Shown one piece after another: positions 26,948 through 61,123 of a DNA stretch of 64,000 nt (positions are counted from its first letter, which is position 1; every line of letters begins with the position of its first letter). The position numbers were made by a program, and so were the translations under genes. The notes beneath the pieces were generated by a model. That model did not search any database, was not told where the DNA came from, and worked only from the letters and a program-made list of their open reading frames with translations. Origin of the DNA: Candidatus Saccharimonas sp. (GTDB taxonomy: Bacteria > Patescibacteriota > Saccharimonadia > Saccharimonadales > Saccharimonadaceae); contig JBASZO010000015.1 of the NCBI GenBank assembly GCA_049660945.1, forward strand, positions 1,338 to 65,337. Direction: 5' to 3'.

Positions 26948-27056
26948 AGCTAAATCATAGCAAAGTTAATAGTTTTTCTCGAGGGACTTGTGGAAATCCG
27001 CTACAAATGAGTATTATATCTGTAAGTTATCTATAGCTGGTGGGCGTAAGAGAGGG

Positions 27057-29657
27057 ATGATGCTTACCGGTGACAAACTGACAAGTTGGCTGAATACGCT
27101 CCGAGGCTTCCTGCCATGGGTCATTGCTGTAGCGGTTATTGTATCCTTGGTTTTCCTTGTTCTGAAACTGTTAAGTGTGCGCAGACTAGTGCGTAGGAAG
27201 TCGGTGTTTTTAGAACTCACACCGCCCGCTAATACTGCCCGGGCACCTCGCGCAACGCAAGAGCTATTTGCTGTTATTCATGGCCTGCGCAGCAATCGGA
27301 CACTACGCGACAGGCTACTACGGCGTGAGGTCGTTCTGTCTTTCGAAGTATCATCGACGCGAAAGCAAGGCGTGCGTTATCTCGTGCGGGTGGATGCTCG
27401 GCATGCGGACAATTTGCAGCAAGCCATCGTCTCCTATTTACCACAGATAAAGGTTACGGAAGTTCCTGAAACTTTAGCTGAGGATGGTATGCAAGTTGTT
27501 GAGTTCAAGCAGACAGGTCACTTCGCCTTTCCACTTGCGACTATCGGTTCGCTAGACCAGCACGACCCAGTAGCATACCTAGCAGGTGCTCTAACGAAGC
27601 TACGCTCAGATGAACAGATACGTTTTCAAATAGTACTAACGCCGGTTCGTTTACGCGAGGCTTCGCTACTCGCACATAAAATACTCGGCAACGAAAATCT
27701 CTTAGTCCACTTGAATAGCAAGAAAATACCCTTGTGGTCGGGGCTTATGGCTGTAATGAACAAAGTGATGTTCGCCGCTACCGACGCAATTGGCGATGTG
27801 TATCACGGCTCTACTAACCGGGCATACTATAGCTCGGAGCGAACTAATGATGAGCGCACCCAAATTGCACGCAAGCAACGACCCGCTCGCACCTTGAGCG
27901 CCTTTGAGTTGGAGCTTATGGAAACGATGCACAAGAAGCTCAACCAGCCACTCTTCCGCGTGAGTATTCGGGCCGCCGTTGCTATGGATACGCCAGAAGC
28001 AACACACGAACGATTAAATGTTATCAAAACATCACTGCAGGCTTACACTGTGCCGTCCTACCAAACCTTACGTGCTCGCTACAATATGCCAATTGTACGA
28101 AGTATTCGCCGATTCAATTTTACTCATCACTTACCATCGTTTTTTGCCAGTAATTCTTTGGTGTTGTCTTCGTCTGAGCTGGCAGGTCTGTATCATTTCC
28201 CGCTGGGCAATACTTCCCAGACGGATAACCTCATTACGTCGTTAAGTCGTACGCTACCCGCACCCGTATCGCTGAAGCAAGACAATAGCCTGGATGTTGT
28301 AGTCGGACAGAATGAACATCACGGCGTAGCCACGCCAATTGGACTGACCGAACAAGAACGCGAACGTCATGTTTACATCATCGGTGGAACCGGCAACGGT
28401 AAGACAACCTTGTTGCAATACCAGATTGTGCAGGACATGCAGAATGGGAAAGGTTTAGCTATCGTTGACCCGCACGGCGATATGGCCGAGACACTGCTTC
28501 GCCATGTGCCATCCGAGCGAGTACAGGACGTTATCTACTTCAACCCCGACGACTTGGAATATCCAATTGGCCTAAACCTTTTAGAGCTGACGCCCGGTTT
28601 AACAGGCAACGAGTTGCTACGCGAAAAGGACTTGATAACTGAGTCCGTCGTTTCCGTCTTCCGCAAGATTTTCTCCGATGACGATAACGGCGGCCACCGC
28701 ATCGAGTATGTCCTGCGTAATGCCGTACAGACCGCCCTGACCGTGCCGGATGCCACGCTCTTTACTGTATTCGACCTTTTGAACGACCCGAAATATCGCA
28801 AGTCAGTCACAAGGAACTTAGAAGATAAAAACCTGGTCAACTTTTGGAAGAACGAACTTGGCAAGGCCGGTGATATGCAGAAAGTTAAGATGGCCGCCGG
28901 TATCACCGCTAAGATTGGCCGCTTCCTATTCTCGGCCTCTGCGCGGCAGGTTTTGGAACAGCCCAAGTCCACTATAGATTTTGACGACATTATTAACTCC
29001 GGCAAGATACTGATTTGTAACTTCTCGAAAGGTCTACTTGGTGAAGACACCTCCGAACTGTTCGGCATAACCGTACTTGCCAAACTTCAGTTGGCAAGTT
29101 TGCGTCGCGCCCGTCTTGCGCAGCAGGAGCGCGGCGCATTTTACCTGTACGTCGATGAGTTCCAGAACTTCGCTACACAATCGTTTGTACAGATGCTCTC
29201 TGAAAGTCGGAAATACAAGCTGTTCATGGTCATGGCCGAGCAGTCCACCTCACAGCAGGACGACCAGCAGATGGTGAACATCATCTTAGCGAACGTTGGC
29301 ACCGTCATCTGCTTCCGCACGGGCAACCCACAAGATGAGCGATTACTTCTGCCACTATTTAGTCCTTACATCGAGCAGGGTGAAATAAGTAACCTGCCAC
29401 CATTCAACTTCTACGCAAAACTCTCCGCCACCAAGTCCCAAGAACCGCTCTCCGGCGAAACACTATTGCTTGCAAATGACGGTAGCGCCGAAATAGCCAC
29501 TGAGGTAATACAAAAATCCCGTGTTACTTTCGCTCGAACACAATCACCCAAGCCTGAAACCCCAGTACCGTATGAACCAAATACGAAACTCGCAAAGAAA
29601 CAGCCCAAGAGAACAGTTGAACCCCAGGCTGTCGTCATGCTTGATGTAGCCGACTGA
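27057..29657 (+). CDS. virD4: VirD4/TraG/TraD-type T4SS coupling-protein ATPase with an N-terminal TM anchor
   Basis: TM segment WVIAVAVIVSLVFLVLKLL. Walker A IIGGTGNGKTT. Walker B FYLYVDEFQNF. Also VMAEQS and ICFRTGNPQD. Start at ATG 27057 (RBS AGAGAGGG). Confidence 0.8.
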   Translation: MMLTGDKLTSWLNTLRGFLPWVIAVAVIVSLVFLVLKLLSVRRLVRRKSVFLELTPPANTARAPRATQELFAVIHGLRSNRTLRDRLLRREVVLSFEVSSTRKQGVRYLVRVDARHADNLQQAIVSYLPQIKVTEVPETLAEDGMQVVEFKQTGHFAFPLATIGSLDQHDPVAYLAGALTKLRSDEQIRFQIVLTPVRLREASLLAHKILGNENLLVHLNSKKIPLWSGLMAVMNKVMFAATDAIGDVYHGSTNRAYYSSERTNDERTQIARKQRPARTLSAFELELMETMHKKLNQPLFRVSIRAAVAMDTPEATHERLNVIKTSLQAYTVPSYQTLRARYNMPIVRSIRRFNFTHHLPSFFASNSLVLSSSELAGLYHFPLGNTSQTDNLITSLSRTLPAPVSLKQDNSLDVVVGQNEHHGVATPIGLTEQERERHVYIIGGTGNGKTTLLQYQIVQDMQNGKGLAIVDPHGDMAETLLRHVPSERVQDVIYFNPDDLEYPIGLNLLELTPGLTGNELLREKDLITESVVSVFRKIFSDDDNGGHRIEYVLRNAVQTALTVPDATLFTVFDLLNDPKYRKSVTRNLEDKNLVNFWKNELGKAGDMQKVKMAAGITAKIGRFLFSASARQVLEQPKSTIDFDDIINSGKILICNFSKGLLGEDTSELFGITVLAKLQLASLRRARLAQQERGAFYLYVDEFQNFATQSFVQMLSESRKYKLFMVMAEQSTSQQDDQQMVNIILANVGTVICFRTGNPQDERLLLPLFSPYIEQGEISNLPPFNFYAKLSATKSQEPLSGETLLLANDGSAEIATEVIQKSRVTFARTQSPKPETPVPYEPNTKLAKKQPKRTVEPQAVVMLDVAD

Positions 29658-29671
29658 CCTCTGTAAGTAGC

Positions 29672-29700
29672 TTGATAAAATAACATTTTTATGCCATTAT
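29672..29700 (+). promoter_or_regulatory. Candidate sigma70 promoter of the small-ORF/hammerhead cassette
   Basis: TTGATA (29672-77), 17-nt spacer, CATTAT (29695-700). Confidence 0.4.
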
Positions 29701-29758
29701 GTTCTCACTTCGTCGAGATGCAGATATCTTCATTTCCGAGGTTCTTTGACAAGCAGAC

Positions 29759-29814
29759 CACACAAGGTGAGAAGTAAGCACATACAGTAGTGTTCTTACC
29801 CCTCATCTTGTGTG
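29759..29814 (+). repeat. Long imperfect inverted repeat (20-bp arms, 16-nt loop)
   Basis: cacacaaggtgagaagtaag (29759-78) pairs with cttacccctcatcttgtgtg (29795-814): 17 Watson-Crick pairs, 1 G-U, 2 mismatches. Read directly. Confidence 0.6.
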
Positions 29815-29882
29815 TTGGGAATAAACACACGCTCGCTTTTGCGAGGGGTCTCTGTACCATGAGGAGAATTGGGAGGTGCGCC

Positions 29883-30068
29883 ATGAGTTTCGTAATTTCA
29901 CCACGCGATTACGAAGAGATGGCCAAAGCGCTGAAAGCTGCTGGGCTTGACGAGTCGAAGTCACGCCAGGTGGTCGACGCGCTGTTCACCAATGGTCACA
30001 TGCTGATCGACTCGAGGACCTACCACGAGATGTACGTCAGTGCGAACACCTACGGGGTGCCGTCCTGA
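29883..30068 (+). CDS. Hypothetical 61-aa protein, first ORF of the G/C-shifted cassette
   Basis: ATG preceded by GGGAGG at 6 nt. No recognisable family. Confidence 0.4.
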   Translation: MSFVISPRDYEEMAKALKAAGLDESKSRQVVDALFTNGHMLIDSRTYHEMYVSANTYGVPS

Positions 30069-30114
30069 TTACGTCTTAGTCCACAATGGTTCCACTCTCG
30101 AAAGGGCCAGACTC

Positions 30115-30336
30115 ATGGAAGTTGTAAGCAACGGGATTTACGAGCGATGTGGCGTGTGTGGGCAAATGGTTCGTCTGAATAAGCGCCTGTTTGGTAGCTT
30201 GCACATCTGTCTAACAGATTGTGAAGAAGCCGAACGGCACCTGGACATTCAGACTCGCAACGTGTGGTCGCTCAAAGGACGGCGTACCGAGAAGTTCTGC
30301 GCGCGTTGCGGAGAAACGCTTCCGGCAGAGCAGTAG
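30115..30336 (+). CDS. Hypothetical 73-aa protein with two CxxC pairs (zinc-ribbon-like)
   Basis: CGVCG...CLTDC...CARCG. The start could also be GTG 30040. Confidence 0.4.
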   Translation: MEVVSNGIYERCGVCGQMVRLNKRLFGSLHICLTDCEEAERHLDIQTRNVWSLKGRRTEKFCARCGETLPAEQ

Positions 30337-30359
30337 TACCTACTAAGGAAGGATTTCTT

Positions 30360-30551
30360 GTGAACGAGAAGAAACCTGAGACCGTAATTAACGAGTGGTG
30401 TGCGTTTCATCTCGATGAGACCGCATCGCGCTGGCCAGCTGGCGGGGGTGTACACGAAGGTGCCAGGGTGGCTCCGAATGGATTCATCTATGCCGGAGAT
30501 GGCATCGTTGCAGCTCTGACCAAGGCTGGATACAGGATTGTATCGGCCTGA
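30360..30551 (+). CDS. Hypothetical 63-aa protein
   Basis: GTG start preceded by AAGGAAGGA. No family recognised. Confidence 0.35.
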   Translation: MNEKKPETVINEWCAFHLDETASRWPAGGGVHEGARVAPNGFIYAGDGIVAALTKAGYRIVSA

Positions 30552-30648
30552 TGCAAGCTAGCGAGTTTGGCAAGTGGACGTGGGTTCAAACCTGGATGTT
30601 CACGGTCACTCGTGATATTTTTTCCTAACCCCATGTCTGCTTGTCGAA

Positions 30649-30701
30649 TTCGCTCCATAACTGTGTAGTTATGCTGATGAGTCCGAAAGGACGAAAGCGA
30701 G
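30649..30701 (+). ncRNA. Type III hammerhead self-cleaving ribozyme
   Basis: 5'-UUCGCU-C^-CAUAACU-GUGU-AGUUAUG-CUGAUGA-GUCC-GAAA-GGAC-GAA-AGCGAG-3'. Stem I is a 7-bp hairpin (30656-73). Core CUGAUGA is 30674-80. Stem II is 4 bp with a GAAA loop (30681-92). GAA is 30693-95. Stem III (open end) is 6 bp, 30649-54 with 30696-701. Predicted cleavage follows C30655 (triplet CUC). Confidence 0.85.
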
Positions 30702-30711
30702 AAATCAAGTA

Positions 30712-30939
30712 CTAAGCTTCTGGGCGTTGTGCTTTGTAGGCTTCGTAATATGTATCGAAGCCGTCTTCGCTCATAGTTGTAGACACTTCTTTTGCAACGG
30801 TCTGCATGAATGCTAGCAGTGAAATGGCATCTTCACGGGTAGCATTTTCGGGGTCATGGTATTGCAGGTATTTCATCGCCGCCGCAATCAGGTTTTCGTC
30901 TGTGATGCTCGGCCGTGTATCAAAATCGTTGTCGTTCAT
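30712..30939 (-). CDS. Hypothetical acidic 75-aa protein, downstream partner of the PLD nuclease gene (4-nt overlap)
   Basis: ORF-track entry. Its ATG overlaps the stop of 30936-31409. No family recognised. Confidence 0.5.
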   Translation of the reverse strand: MNDNDFDTRPSITDENLIAAAMKYLQYHDPENATREDAISLLAFMQTVAKEVSTTMSEDGFDTYYEAYKAQRPEA

Positions 30940-31409: not shown

Positions 31410-31544
31410 CTCGTCCCTCCGAAGTGTCTAGGTCGGCTAGATAAACTTGCCCGTCAACATACCCGACACCAAGTTCAACCATTCTGCTGTATAGCGTAAC
31501 CAAATCTTCCTCCAAAGAGTGCCACTGAAATATACGAGGGCTCA

Positions 31545-31587
31545 CCAAAGTAAATACCCCTCTACGAAAGAGGGGTATTTACTTTGG
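31545..31587. repeat. Perfect 18-bp-stem hairpin (7-nt loop) between the CPBP protease gene and the PLD operon
   Basis: ccaaagtaaatacccctc-tacgaaa-gaggggtatttactttgg, read directly. No clean T tract on the minus strand. A short T-rich run (tgtgttttctt) follows on the plus strand. Confidence 0.6.
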
Positions 31588-31609
31588 TGTGTTTTCTTGG
31601 TGCAGCTTC

Positions 31610-60810: not shown

Positions 60811-61123
60811 CAGGAAAGCACCTTGCCTTAGTGATATCGCAGAACTTCTGTTCTAAGAAATCAGCGGGCGGGCATAAACGAGCAACGGTGCCTACCTTAA
60901 ATGTCGTTACGAACGCCGAACAGCACACTATAACGTACTAAATATTATCTAATACTTATTGGTCGACATGTGCGTTCTGCCCTGAATTCAGGGGAAAGAC
61001 AAAGTCAGGTAGTTGTATTGTCAGCAATGATGATACAGGAGAAAGATTATTCGTAATTATGTTGACGAGATTTCGCTGAAAGTTCAGCAGTCTCGTGAAA
61101 CGACAGAACAGATCCAGAGCTCG

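Follow-up and report, generated by a model that had tools for sequence, protein, structure and literature searches.

A minimal type III hammerhead ribozyme at the 3' end of an inserted cassette in a Candidatus Saccharimonas genome

A hammerhead at a gene junction

The stretch of DNA analysed here (the window) comprises 64,000 nucleotides of contig JBASZO010000015.1 from Candidatus Saccharimonas sp., and its own numbering is used throughout. A 53-nt type III hammerhead ribozyme motif lies on its plus strand at 30649-30701. At this point a gene for a type IV secretion system (T4SS) coupling-protein-like ATPase faces a minus-strand operon for a PLD-like protein and a 75-aa protein, and the hammerhead is the last module of a cassette inserted between them. 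The features that define the locus are as follows, and loci elsewhere are given by labels of the form L123.

26988-29657, plus strand: T4SS coupling-protein-like ATPase gene
29658-30711, plus strand: inserted cassette with promoter, leader, three small open reading frames (ORFs), structured 3' untranslated region (UTR) and hammerhead; recognised from the empty site in relatives
30649-30701, plus strand: type III hammerhead ribozyme, recognised by anatomy, Rfam model RF00008, minimum free energy (MFE) folding, covariation and shuffles; predicted cut between C30655 and C30656
30712-31409, minus strand: operon of the PLD-like gene and the 75-aa ORF
30712-30939, minus strand: the 75-aa ORF itself, whose stop codon begins 10 nt past the hammerhead

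The motif reads UUCGCU-C-CAUAACU-GUGU-AGUUAUG-CUGAUGA-GUCC-GAAA-GGAC-GAA-AGCGAG. Stem III pairs UUCGCU at 30649-30654 with AGCGAG at 30696-30701 over 6 bp, with a U.G pair outermost and the A15.1-U16.1 pair (A30696-U30654) at its inner end. C17 is at 30655 in the triplet CUC, and is thus a non-G nucleotide as position 17 requires. Stem I joins CAUAACU (30656-30662) to AGUUAUG (30667-30673) in 7 bp closed by a GUGU loop, and stem II (GUCC-GAAA-GGAC, 30681-30692) has 4 bp including the G10.1-C11.1 pair (G30681-C30692). The core strands CUGAUGA (30674-30680) and GAA (30693-30695) fall entirely on invariant RF00008 positions, stem III is open, and loops cap stems I and II, as the type III topology demands. 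A preliminary description of this DNA, made from its letters alone, had placed all of these elements in order on the plus strand, and each of them was recovered where it had been placed, as was the distance of 10 nt to the stop codon of the minus-strand gene.

The MFE structure of 30640-30710 is exactly the hammerhead secondary structure with all three helices (-18.2 kcal/mol, z = -2.4). A permissive scan of 30500-30850 (351 nt) aligned RF00008 end to end with 35.3 bits and E = 3.9e-6, or about 7e-4 by our own rescaling to the whole window; the match, from the kind of search that the preliminary description had proposed as a check, is significant, but its score is under the 48.5-bit cut-off weighed below. 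A relaxed type III descriptor had no match in 300 dinucleotide-preserving shuffles of the window. The bare core CTGATGA-N8-30-GAAA occurs three times in the window, and stems are present only at 30649-30701, which is the sole hammerhead in the 64 kb. Because of this fold, this alignment, the empty shuffles and the single core with stems, the motif is genuine rather than due to chance, as the preliminary description had expected. Its assignment to the type III hammerheads likewise holds, since the defining structural features are all present, the covariance-model match is significant though sub-threshold, and the stems of the class to which it belongs covary. A default scan of the window in gathering mode reported no hammerhead, only a lysM-TM7 RNA (RF03005, 103 bits, 60890-61041, plus strand) and a tRNA, tRNA-Glu(UUC), at 414-488 on the plus strand. 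The lysM-TM7 RNA is a hint that the DNA derives from a Saccharibacteria (TM7) genome.

The site of the cassette is empty in many relatives. In those found via the 75-aa protein (L124-L137 and L143), the same coupling-protein gene and PLD/75-aa pair are present, their two stop codons abut or overlap, and neither cassette nor hammerhead is found at the junction. Unrelated cargo without a hammerhead occupies the same junction in L138, which holds two other genes, and in L140, which holds an 891-aa protein with PHP and AAA_15/21/23 ATPase domains and a defence-like look. The junction between the coupling-protein gene and the PLD/75-aa pair (29657/30712) is thus an insertion hotspot. In relatives the PLD pair comes after genes for a 604-aa serine recombinase and a Replic_Relax protein, giving the region the look of an integrative and conjugative element.

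One related strain, L123, retains about 190 nt after the ATPase stop codon and, at about 92% identity, the ribozyme together with some 90 nt before it, while the roughly 790 nt between these end blocks are swapped for an unrelated stretch of about 930 nt that encodes a 270-aa protein. Its flanks are 85-92% identical to those of the window, and within its ribozyme only G30701 differs, being A, so that the terminal pair is U-A instead of U.G. Since the site is empty in relatives and L123 has the same end blocks around different cargo, 29658-30711 is an inserted cassette of about 1.05 kb with conserved ends and exchangeable cargo, and the hammerhead is its last 53-nt module. The convergent intergenic gap of the preliminary description does lie between convergent genes, but the gap is the 3' end of the insertion that brought the ribozyme. 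Cassettes of the same subfamily in other genomes adjoin unrelated housekeeping genes (among them rpsJ, rpsB, topA/dprA and lysA), and a blastn search of the whole insertion against 50,697 phage records gave no match. The Logan contigs L121, L122 and L286 are identical to the window. Beyond the operon, a perfect 21-bp inverted repeat with a 5-nt loop (31543-31589) lies between the PLD gene and a CPBP protease gene and is terminator-like.

A covarying class of minimal hammerheads

The window copy is a minimal variant, which we define by a 7-bp stem I, a U-GUGU-R loop and a GUCC-NAAA-GGAC stem II. Viral contigs were scanned with the core and stem II fixed and the loop free, which returned at least 126 cores, and 31 of these parse as type III. 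About 20 of these 31, among the matches listed, have the architecture of the window copy (7-bp stem I, GUGU or GAGU loop, GUCC-NAAA-GGAC); GUGU or GAGU in loop 1 co-occurs with NAAA in loop 2 in the viral matches listed, the loops having been unconstrained in the search. Genomes, one per species, were scanned with only loop 1, the core and stem II fixed, giving at least 120 loci and at least 130 matches. Of the 130 matches listed, 121 have a perfect 7-bp stem I although its 5' strand was left free, and 120 have a stem III of at least 4 bp; nucleotide 17 is C in 88 of the 130, U in 32, A in 9 and G in 1.

An alignment (A3) of 118 distinct 53-nt genomic copies, the window copy included, has 95.1% of its cells paired, compared with 67.4% after shuffling and 31-46% with slid partners, and contains 630 double-change cells against 182 in shuffles. 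Stem I is 99.4% paired and stem III 86.7%, and both sides change in 11 of the 13 pairs that are not fixed. The U preceding loop 1 is invariant (118 of 118 copies), although the search left this position free. This U and the co-occurrence of the two loop types bear on a possible tertiary contact between stems I and II, of the sort that lets hammerheads cleave fast at physiological Mg2+. The minimal variant is therefore a real covarying class that includes the window copy.

By record title, the 120 genome loci among the matches listed divide as follows.

Saccharibacteria: 58 loci
Other lineages of Patescibacteria or the candidate phyla radiation (CPR): 35 loci
Proteobacterial metagenome-assembled genomes: 12 loci
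Unnamed: 11 loci
Other: 4 loci

CPR names thus stand on 93 of the 120 loci among the matches listed. The listing interleaves taxa with no apparent taxonomic sorting, and the CPR enrichment of the variant is probably real. In gathering mode, Rfam detected none of 21 class copies from 19 loci. The preliminary description knew of no hammerhead characterised in a CPR-like genome, and a full-text literature search coupling hammerhead or self-cleaving RNA with Patescibacteria, candidate phyla radiation or Saccharibacteria found nothing relevant; the variant is nevertheless common, not exceptional, in CPR genomes, and is present in phage contigs as well.

A same-strand ORF precedes 85 of the 113 class copies listed, usually by about 30-100 nt. 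These upstream ORFs are mostly orphans, the genes downstream are often housekeeping genes, and in many copies a hairpin abuts stem III. Tandem hammerheads occur on one strand, 0.4-2.3 kb apart, in L164, L165, L189, L214 and L253, often with identical stem III sequences, and in L164 each tandem unit has a separate promoter and hammerhead. We also observed 12 tRNA genes in the 132 kb around class hammerheads at 19 genome loci (L144-L163). This number may be above expectation, which would fit integration beside tRNA genes.

Competing pairings and the rest of the cassette

The block that ends the cassette, 30560-30701, is common to L163, L255, L191, L194 and L207 of the genome collection and to further metagenome loci, which together form the subfamily of the window copy. 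Its structures upstream of the ribozyme are the following.

30560-30584, plus strand: 5' strand of an alternative helix, AGCGAG-UUUGGCAAGUGGAC-GUGGG, which pairs with 30630-30654
30600-30623, plus strand: terminator-like hairpin UCACGG-UCA-CUCGUGA followed by a U-run, from a consensus scan, within the loop of the alternative helix
30630-30654, plus strand: 3' strand of the alternative helix, which contains the right arm of an inverted repeat (IR-R, 30635-30648) and the 5' strand of stem III (30649-30654)

The alternative helix has 25 bp, 6 of them G.U, and ends at U16.1, one nucleotide before the cleavage site; its base AGCGAG (30560-30565) is a copy of the 3' strand of stem III. It encloses the terminator-like hairpin and a small hairpin. 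In local folding it is the MFE structure of eight subfamily members, and a second folding returned it for five of these and for L194. Imposing the hammerhead fold raises the energy of seven members by 4 to 16 kcal/mol, while the eighth, L282, did not fit the hammerhead constraint because its loop 2 has 5 nt. Across 14 distinct members 92.2% of the cells of this helix are paired, compared with 34-46% in slid controls, and both sides change in 12 pairs compared with 3.4 in shuffles. Several of its positions carry conserved G.U pairs, and these point to a helix formed at the RNA level on the sense strand. Between the last stop codon of the cargo and the helix base there are 7-15 nt in 10 of 13 members, and 8 nt in the window. 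The terminator-like hairpin has 6 pairs, 3 of them G-C, followed by TATTTTTT in a simple consensus scan, and hairpin and T-run are kept with compensating changes in the subfamily.

A second pairing links the 3' block to the leader. The left arm of the inverted repeat (IR-L, 29745-29758) is predicted to form a duplex of -22.5 kcal/mol with 30635-30648. In the class as a whole, 16 of 104 loci have, 0.45-1.25 kb upstream, a stretch of 10 nt or more that is exactly the reverse complement of sequence within the 24-30 nt directly 5' of stem III, against 2 and 1 in two controls. In 31 of the 36 best pairings, 0-5 nt separate the right arm from stem III. The leader arm is constant in position and variable in sequence, and its partner changes in step, in L191 (CAGGCA with UGCCUG), L252 (UUAACAAG with CUUGUU), L239 (UACAUAGAGAUA with UAUCUCUAUGUA), L184, L186, L271 and L275.

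The remaining features of the cassette, in order, are these.

29672-29700, plus strand: promoter-like site, TTGATA and CATTAT separated by 17 nt, from a consensus scan
29708-29741, plus strand: 5'-proximal leader hairpin CUUCG...CGAGG, a putative structure read by eye
29745-29758, plus strand: IR-L, leader sequence UUUGACAAGCAGAC, the inverted-repeat complement of 30635-30648
29760-29813, plus strand: leader hairpin from the list of MFE helices, a 12-bp stem ACACAAGGUGAG/CUCAUCUUGUGU around a variable apical hairpin
29832-29845, plus strand: small hairpin CUCGC-UUUU-GCGAG, directly upstream of the ribosome-binding site
29883-30068, plus strand: cargo ORF1, 61 aa, as called in L286, a contig identical to the window; the start may alternatively be the ATG at 29859
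30115-30336, plus strand: cargo ORF2, 73 aa with two CxxC pairs, from gene calls on L286
30360-30551, plus strand: cargo ORF3, 63 aa with a GTG start, from exact look-up; its stop codon is 8 nt before the alternative helix

Homologous cassettes (L123, L191, L239, L252, L172, L278 and L274) carry TTGACA-N17-TAnAAT at the same place as the promoter-like site, a CTTCGTCGAG...TCCGAAG motif is conserved in homologous leaders, and the 12-bp leader stem is conserved around a variable apex in L123, L255, L252 and L186. The leader as a whole (about 150 nt, 29705-29858, plus strand) is conserved also in L123, L255, L191, L252, L186, L239 and L282, and holds mutually exclusive UGUGUGU/ACACACG pairings. 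The left block with its leader has no counterpart in Rfam, and a search of 29640-29900 turned up no ribozyme-like element. The leader is possibly a cis-regulatory RNA of a new kind. In L252 this leader cassette directly follows a tRNA gene and lacks a hammerhead.

None of the three cargo ORFs of the window has a family in Pfam or PHROG. The ORF1 protein starting from the ATG at 29859 was absent on exact look-up, and ORF2 has one relative besides itself among 5.8 billion proteins, which lies in a phage-like array of small ORFs. Subfamily cargo elsewhere consists mostly of unrelated orphans. Only in the metagenome loci L274 and L275 does the cargo match Pfam Tad4, an inhibitor of type I Thoeris (E = 1.4e-9 and 4.8e-4), which hints, for these two loci, that some cassettes may carry anti-defence genes. 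The subfamily pattern CTGCTTGTCNNNTTCGCTCC had 7 matches in viral contigs, all of them chance matches with no ribozyme. A tRNA-like fragment or attachment site was considered at GGGTTCAAACC (30582-30592) and rejected; neither ARAGORN nor Rfam finds a tRNA there, and the sequence is a small conserved hairpin of the 3' block.

Proposed role and its alternatives

We consider it reasonably probable that 30649-30701 is a genuine and probably competent, CPR-enriched minimal hammerhead that forms the 3' module of a self-promoted cassette and works as follows. Transcription would start at the cassette promoter near 29700, and part of it would stop at the terminator-like hairpin (30600-30623). RNA that reads through would carry the hammerhead and, once stem III forms, would be cut between 30655 and 30656. 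The cassette mRNA would then have a 2',3'-cyclic phosphate end, and this new 3' end could fold back into the 25-bp helix (30560-30584 with 30630-30654), one nucleotide short of the cut. The downstream RNA, antisense to the PLD operon, would be released with a 5'-OH, and rapid decay of such a fragment would remove it. Before cleavage, the 25-bp helix would hide the 5' strand of stem III, and the leader at 29745-29758 could pair with part of the 3' strand of that helix; leader pairing, terminating ribosomes or a protein are candidate triggers.

The most likely function would be conditional 3'-end processing of the cassette transcript together with its insulation. The analysis shows the motif, its place in the class, the insertion, the alternative helix and the complementarity of the leader; that the RNA is cleaved in vivo, that cleavage serves 3'-end formation and insulation, and what triggers the switch are inferred. 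A role at the 3' end fits the same-strand ORF upstream, the orphans upstream and housekeeping genes downstream, the abutting hairpins, and the tandem units with their own promoter and ribozyme. Cleavage is probably conditional rather than constitutive, because the alternative helix would sequester stem III before the cut and the leader could pair with the same strand. Constitutive cleavage should not be assumed in this subfamily, where the ribozyme fold competes with a conserved alternative helix.

Several observations weigh against this proposal. The RF00008 score of 35.3 bits is below the Rfam gathering threshold of 48.5, although this threshold is a property of one Rfam model and not a defining feature of the ribozyme class. 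With the terminator-like hairpin 34 nt upstream, most transcripts may end before the ribozyme is reached. An excess of G.U over A.C would prove that IR-L pairs with IR-R at the RNA level; the counts of G.U against A.C are 34:33 under symmetric scoring and 3:2 in the subfamily, compared with 9:1 in a clean set picked by hand. When a 32-nt piece of the leader is co-folded in trans, the non-ribozyme fold persists in 7 of 8 members. The full-length MFE structure (about 1 kb) contains neither hammerhead stem III nor the leader pairing, a result that counts neither way since folds of this length are unreliable; in the full transcript the off state (-386.7 kcal/mol) and the on state (-385.0 kcal/mol) are nearly equal. 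As thermodynamic models favour the non-ribozyme fold, the ribozyme could be mostly silent. The figure for CPR enrichment rests on the first 120 loci among the matches listed.

Contig ends inside the ribozyme were also considered as a sign of cleavage in vivo. Two Logan contigs with 100% identity to the window have C17 (30655) as their first nucleotide, and in one of those samples the left contig that covers the cassette ends at 30679. Ends at 30655 and 30679 are expected from a k=31 assembly graph if a second sequence shares 30650-30684, and the L207 hammerhead shares exactly this segment. We therefore regard these ends as an assembly artefact and not as RNA cleavage. Near-identical copies of the ribozyme coexist in the community, or elsewhere in this genome.

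A refinement of the proposal, which we consider rather unlikely, is riboswitch-like control coupled to translation or to the leader, in which a ribosome terminating at the cargo stop codon, or IR-L, would open the helix base and cleavage would report translation or the state of the leader. It would explain the spacing of the last cargo stop codon, the exact copy of the stem III 3' strand at the helix base, the nearly equal energies of the two states, and the fact that the same segment has conserved G.U pairs in the local helix but Watson-Crick pairs with IR-L. However, the predicted structure stays unswitched in most co-folds with the leader fragment, a ribosome would reach at most a few base pairs into the helix, no ligand or protein partner is known, and L275 (21 nt) and L279 (28 nt) have a wider gap between stop codon and helix base. 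If the element were instead a relic, an intact but silent hammerhead carried as a passenger of a horizontally acquired fragment and kept because the insertion is recent, the preference of local folds for the inactive conformer, the terminator-like hairpin ahead of the ribozyme and the orphan cargo ORFs of unknown value would be accounted for. This we hold to be improbable. The L123 ribozyme is unchanged but for one pair-improving change, despite replaced cargo and flanks of 85-92% identity; the core, stems and alternative helix are kept by compensatory changes in at least 14 distinct members from different samples; and the whole class covaries.

It is also conceivable, though hardly probable, that the cassette is a circular-RNA or retrozyme-like element, whose hammerhead and end pairing would excise and circularise the cassette RNA and may underlie its mobility. 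Sequence just before stem III is complementary to the 5' part of the unit, a pairing that would lengthen stem III into a rod if the topology were circular or tandem. Moreover, the unit of about 1 kb is dispersed among genomes, tandem cassettes with identical stem III sequences exist in L164, L165, L189 and L253, and Perreault et al. 2011 (PMC3088659) considered that tandem hammerheads of bacteria might yield circular products. The same authors did not detect circles (PMC3088659), however, and the 64-kb window holds a single hammerhead where such an element would need two copies or a transcript longer than one unit, so that the 5' end of the cassette would be a triphosphate start and not a 5'-OH. 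In tandem arrays the promoter sits between the upstream ribozyme and the next unit, and the cassettes examined are accompanied by neither a reverse transcriptase nor a ligase gene. A very improbable explanation is that the 14-nt inverted repeats act at the DNA level as recombination or transposition sites, being ends of a transposon or of an invertible segment, with the hammerhead incidental. Both arms are inverted repeats that change together, as a shared DNA-binding protein would also bring about, and the G.U and A.C counts given above are consistent with this. Yet the repeats are not terminal, since the promoter, 5' hairpin and hammerhead lie outside them and travel with the insertion; the cargo is oriented as the promoter and ribozyme in every member examined; no recombinase is associated with the dispersed copies; and the right arm always abuts stem III, which is sensible only for RNA. 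A terminal-repeat transposon or invertible segment is thus disfavoured by the conserved promoter and ribozyme outside the repeats and by the uniform orientation of all copies.

The core and topology of the element are already known. The window copy shares its core, A15.1-U16.1, G10.1-C11.1, C17 and open stem III with the RF00008 type III hammerheads of viroids, plant satellite RNAs, bacteria and phage, and is more minimal than the RF00008 consensus (7-bp stem I with the 4-nt GUGU loop, 4-bp stem II with the GAAA loop). The function of bacterial hammerheads was still regarded as open in a 2019 review (PMC6765202). Bacterial and prophage hammerheads were described beside single genes or short gene blocks whose identity varies, with transcript processing as the proposed role (Perreault et al. 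2011, PMC3088659). Like them, the window ribozyme is intergenic, has the orientation of the upstream gene and occurs in mobile DNA among variable genes whose function is unknown, and its class is sometimes tandem. Unlike them, it ends a cassette that has its own promoter and whose untranslated blocks at the 5' and 3' ends are conserved, its subfamily has a covarying alternative helix and leader complement, and its hosts are CPR bacteria. What sets the present element apart is the minimal variant concentrated in CPR, the promoter-to-ribozyme cassette and the two covarying competing pairings.

In avsunviroid hammerheads, a ribozyme strand is sequestered in a stabler competing helix and the active fold is transient or conditional. 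A strand of the window ribozyme is likewise held in a stabler competing helix, but the element differs from viroids in being DNA-encoded, in the 3' UTR of an mRNA and single copy, with no evidence of a replicating circular RNA. Retrozymes are eukaryotic, non-coding units of about 1 kb with two copies of a type III hammerhead in direct repeats. The cassette family of the window resembles them in its type III hammerhead, unit length of about 1 kb, complementary unit ends and dispersed copies, whereas the window cassette has one ribozyme, a promoter and ORFs. A metabolite activates the glmS ribozyme, which is located in a 5' UTR and whose 5'-OH product is degraded by RNase J1. Self-cleavage within an mRNA is predicted to yield a 5'-OH fragment from the window element as well, in contrast to glmS from a ribozyme in the 3' UTR and with no known ligand; glmS is mentioned in the same 2019 review (PMC6765202).

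It is possible, if on balance doubtful, that Saccharibacteria and other CPR bacteria carry dispersed mobile units of about 0.5-1.3 kb, each with a promoter, a structured leader, orphan or anti-defence-like cargo and a gated hammerhead that would serve as a portable module for conditional 3'-end formation and insulation. Stem III, held in the covarying alternative helix, would then be freed either through contact of the 5' leader with the 3' UTR or by ribosomes that terminate. Should this prove correct, bacterial hammerheads would for the first time have a defined regulatory architecture and a biological role, in a class that lies under the current Rfam thresholds. The present locus is an unusually clean case, with a defined insertion, a ribozyme that ends a promoter-to-ribozyme unit facing a convergent operon, and two conserved competing pairings, and short transcripts would suffice for a direct test of 3'-end formation, of insulation from antisense read-through and of gated cleavage. 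As the variant is concentrated in CPR (93 of the 120 loci listed) and none of the 21 copies is found at the Rfam cut-off, self-cleaving RNAs may be systematically under-annotated in reduced CPR genomes.

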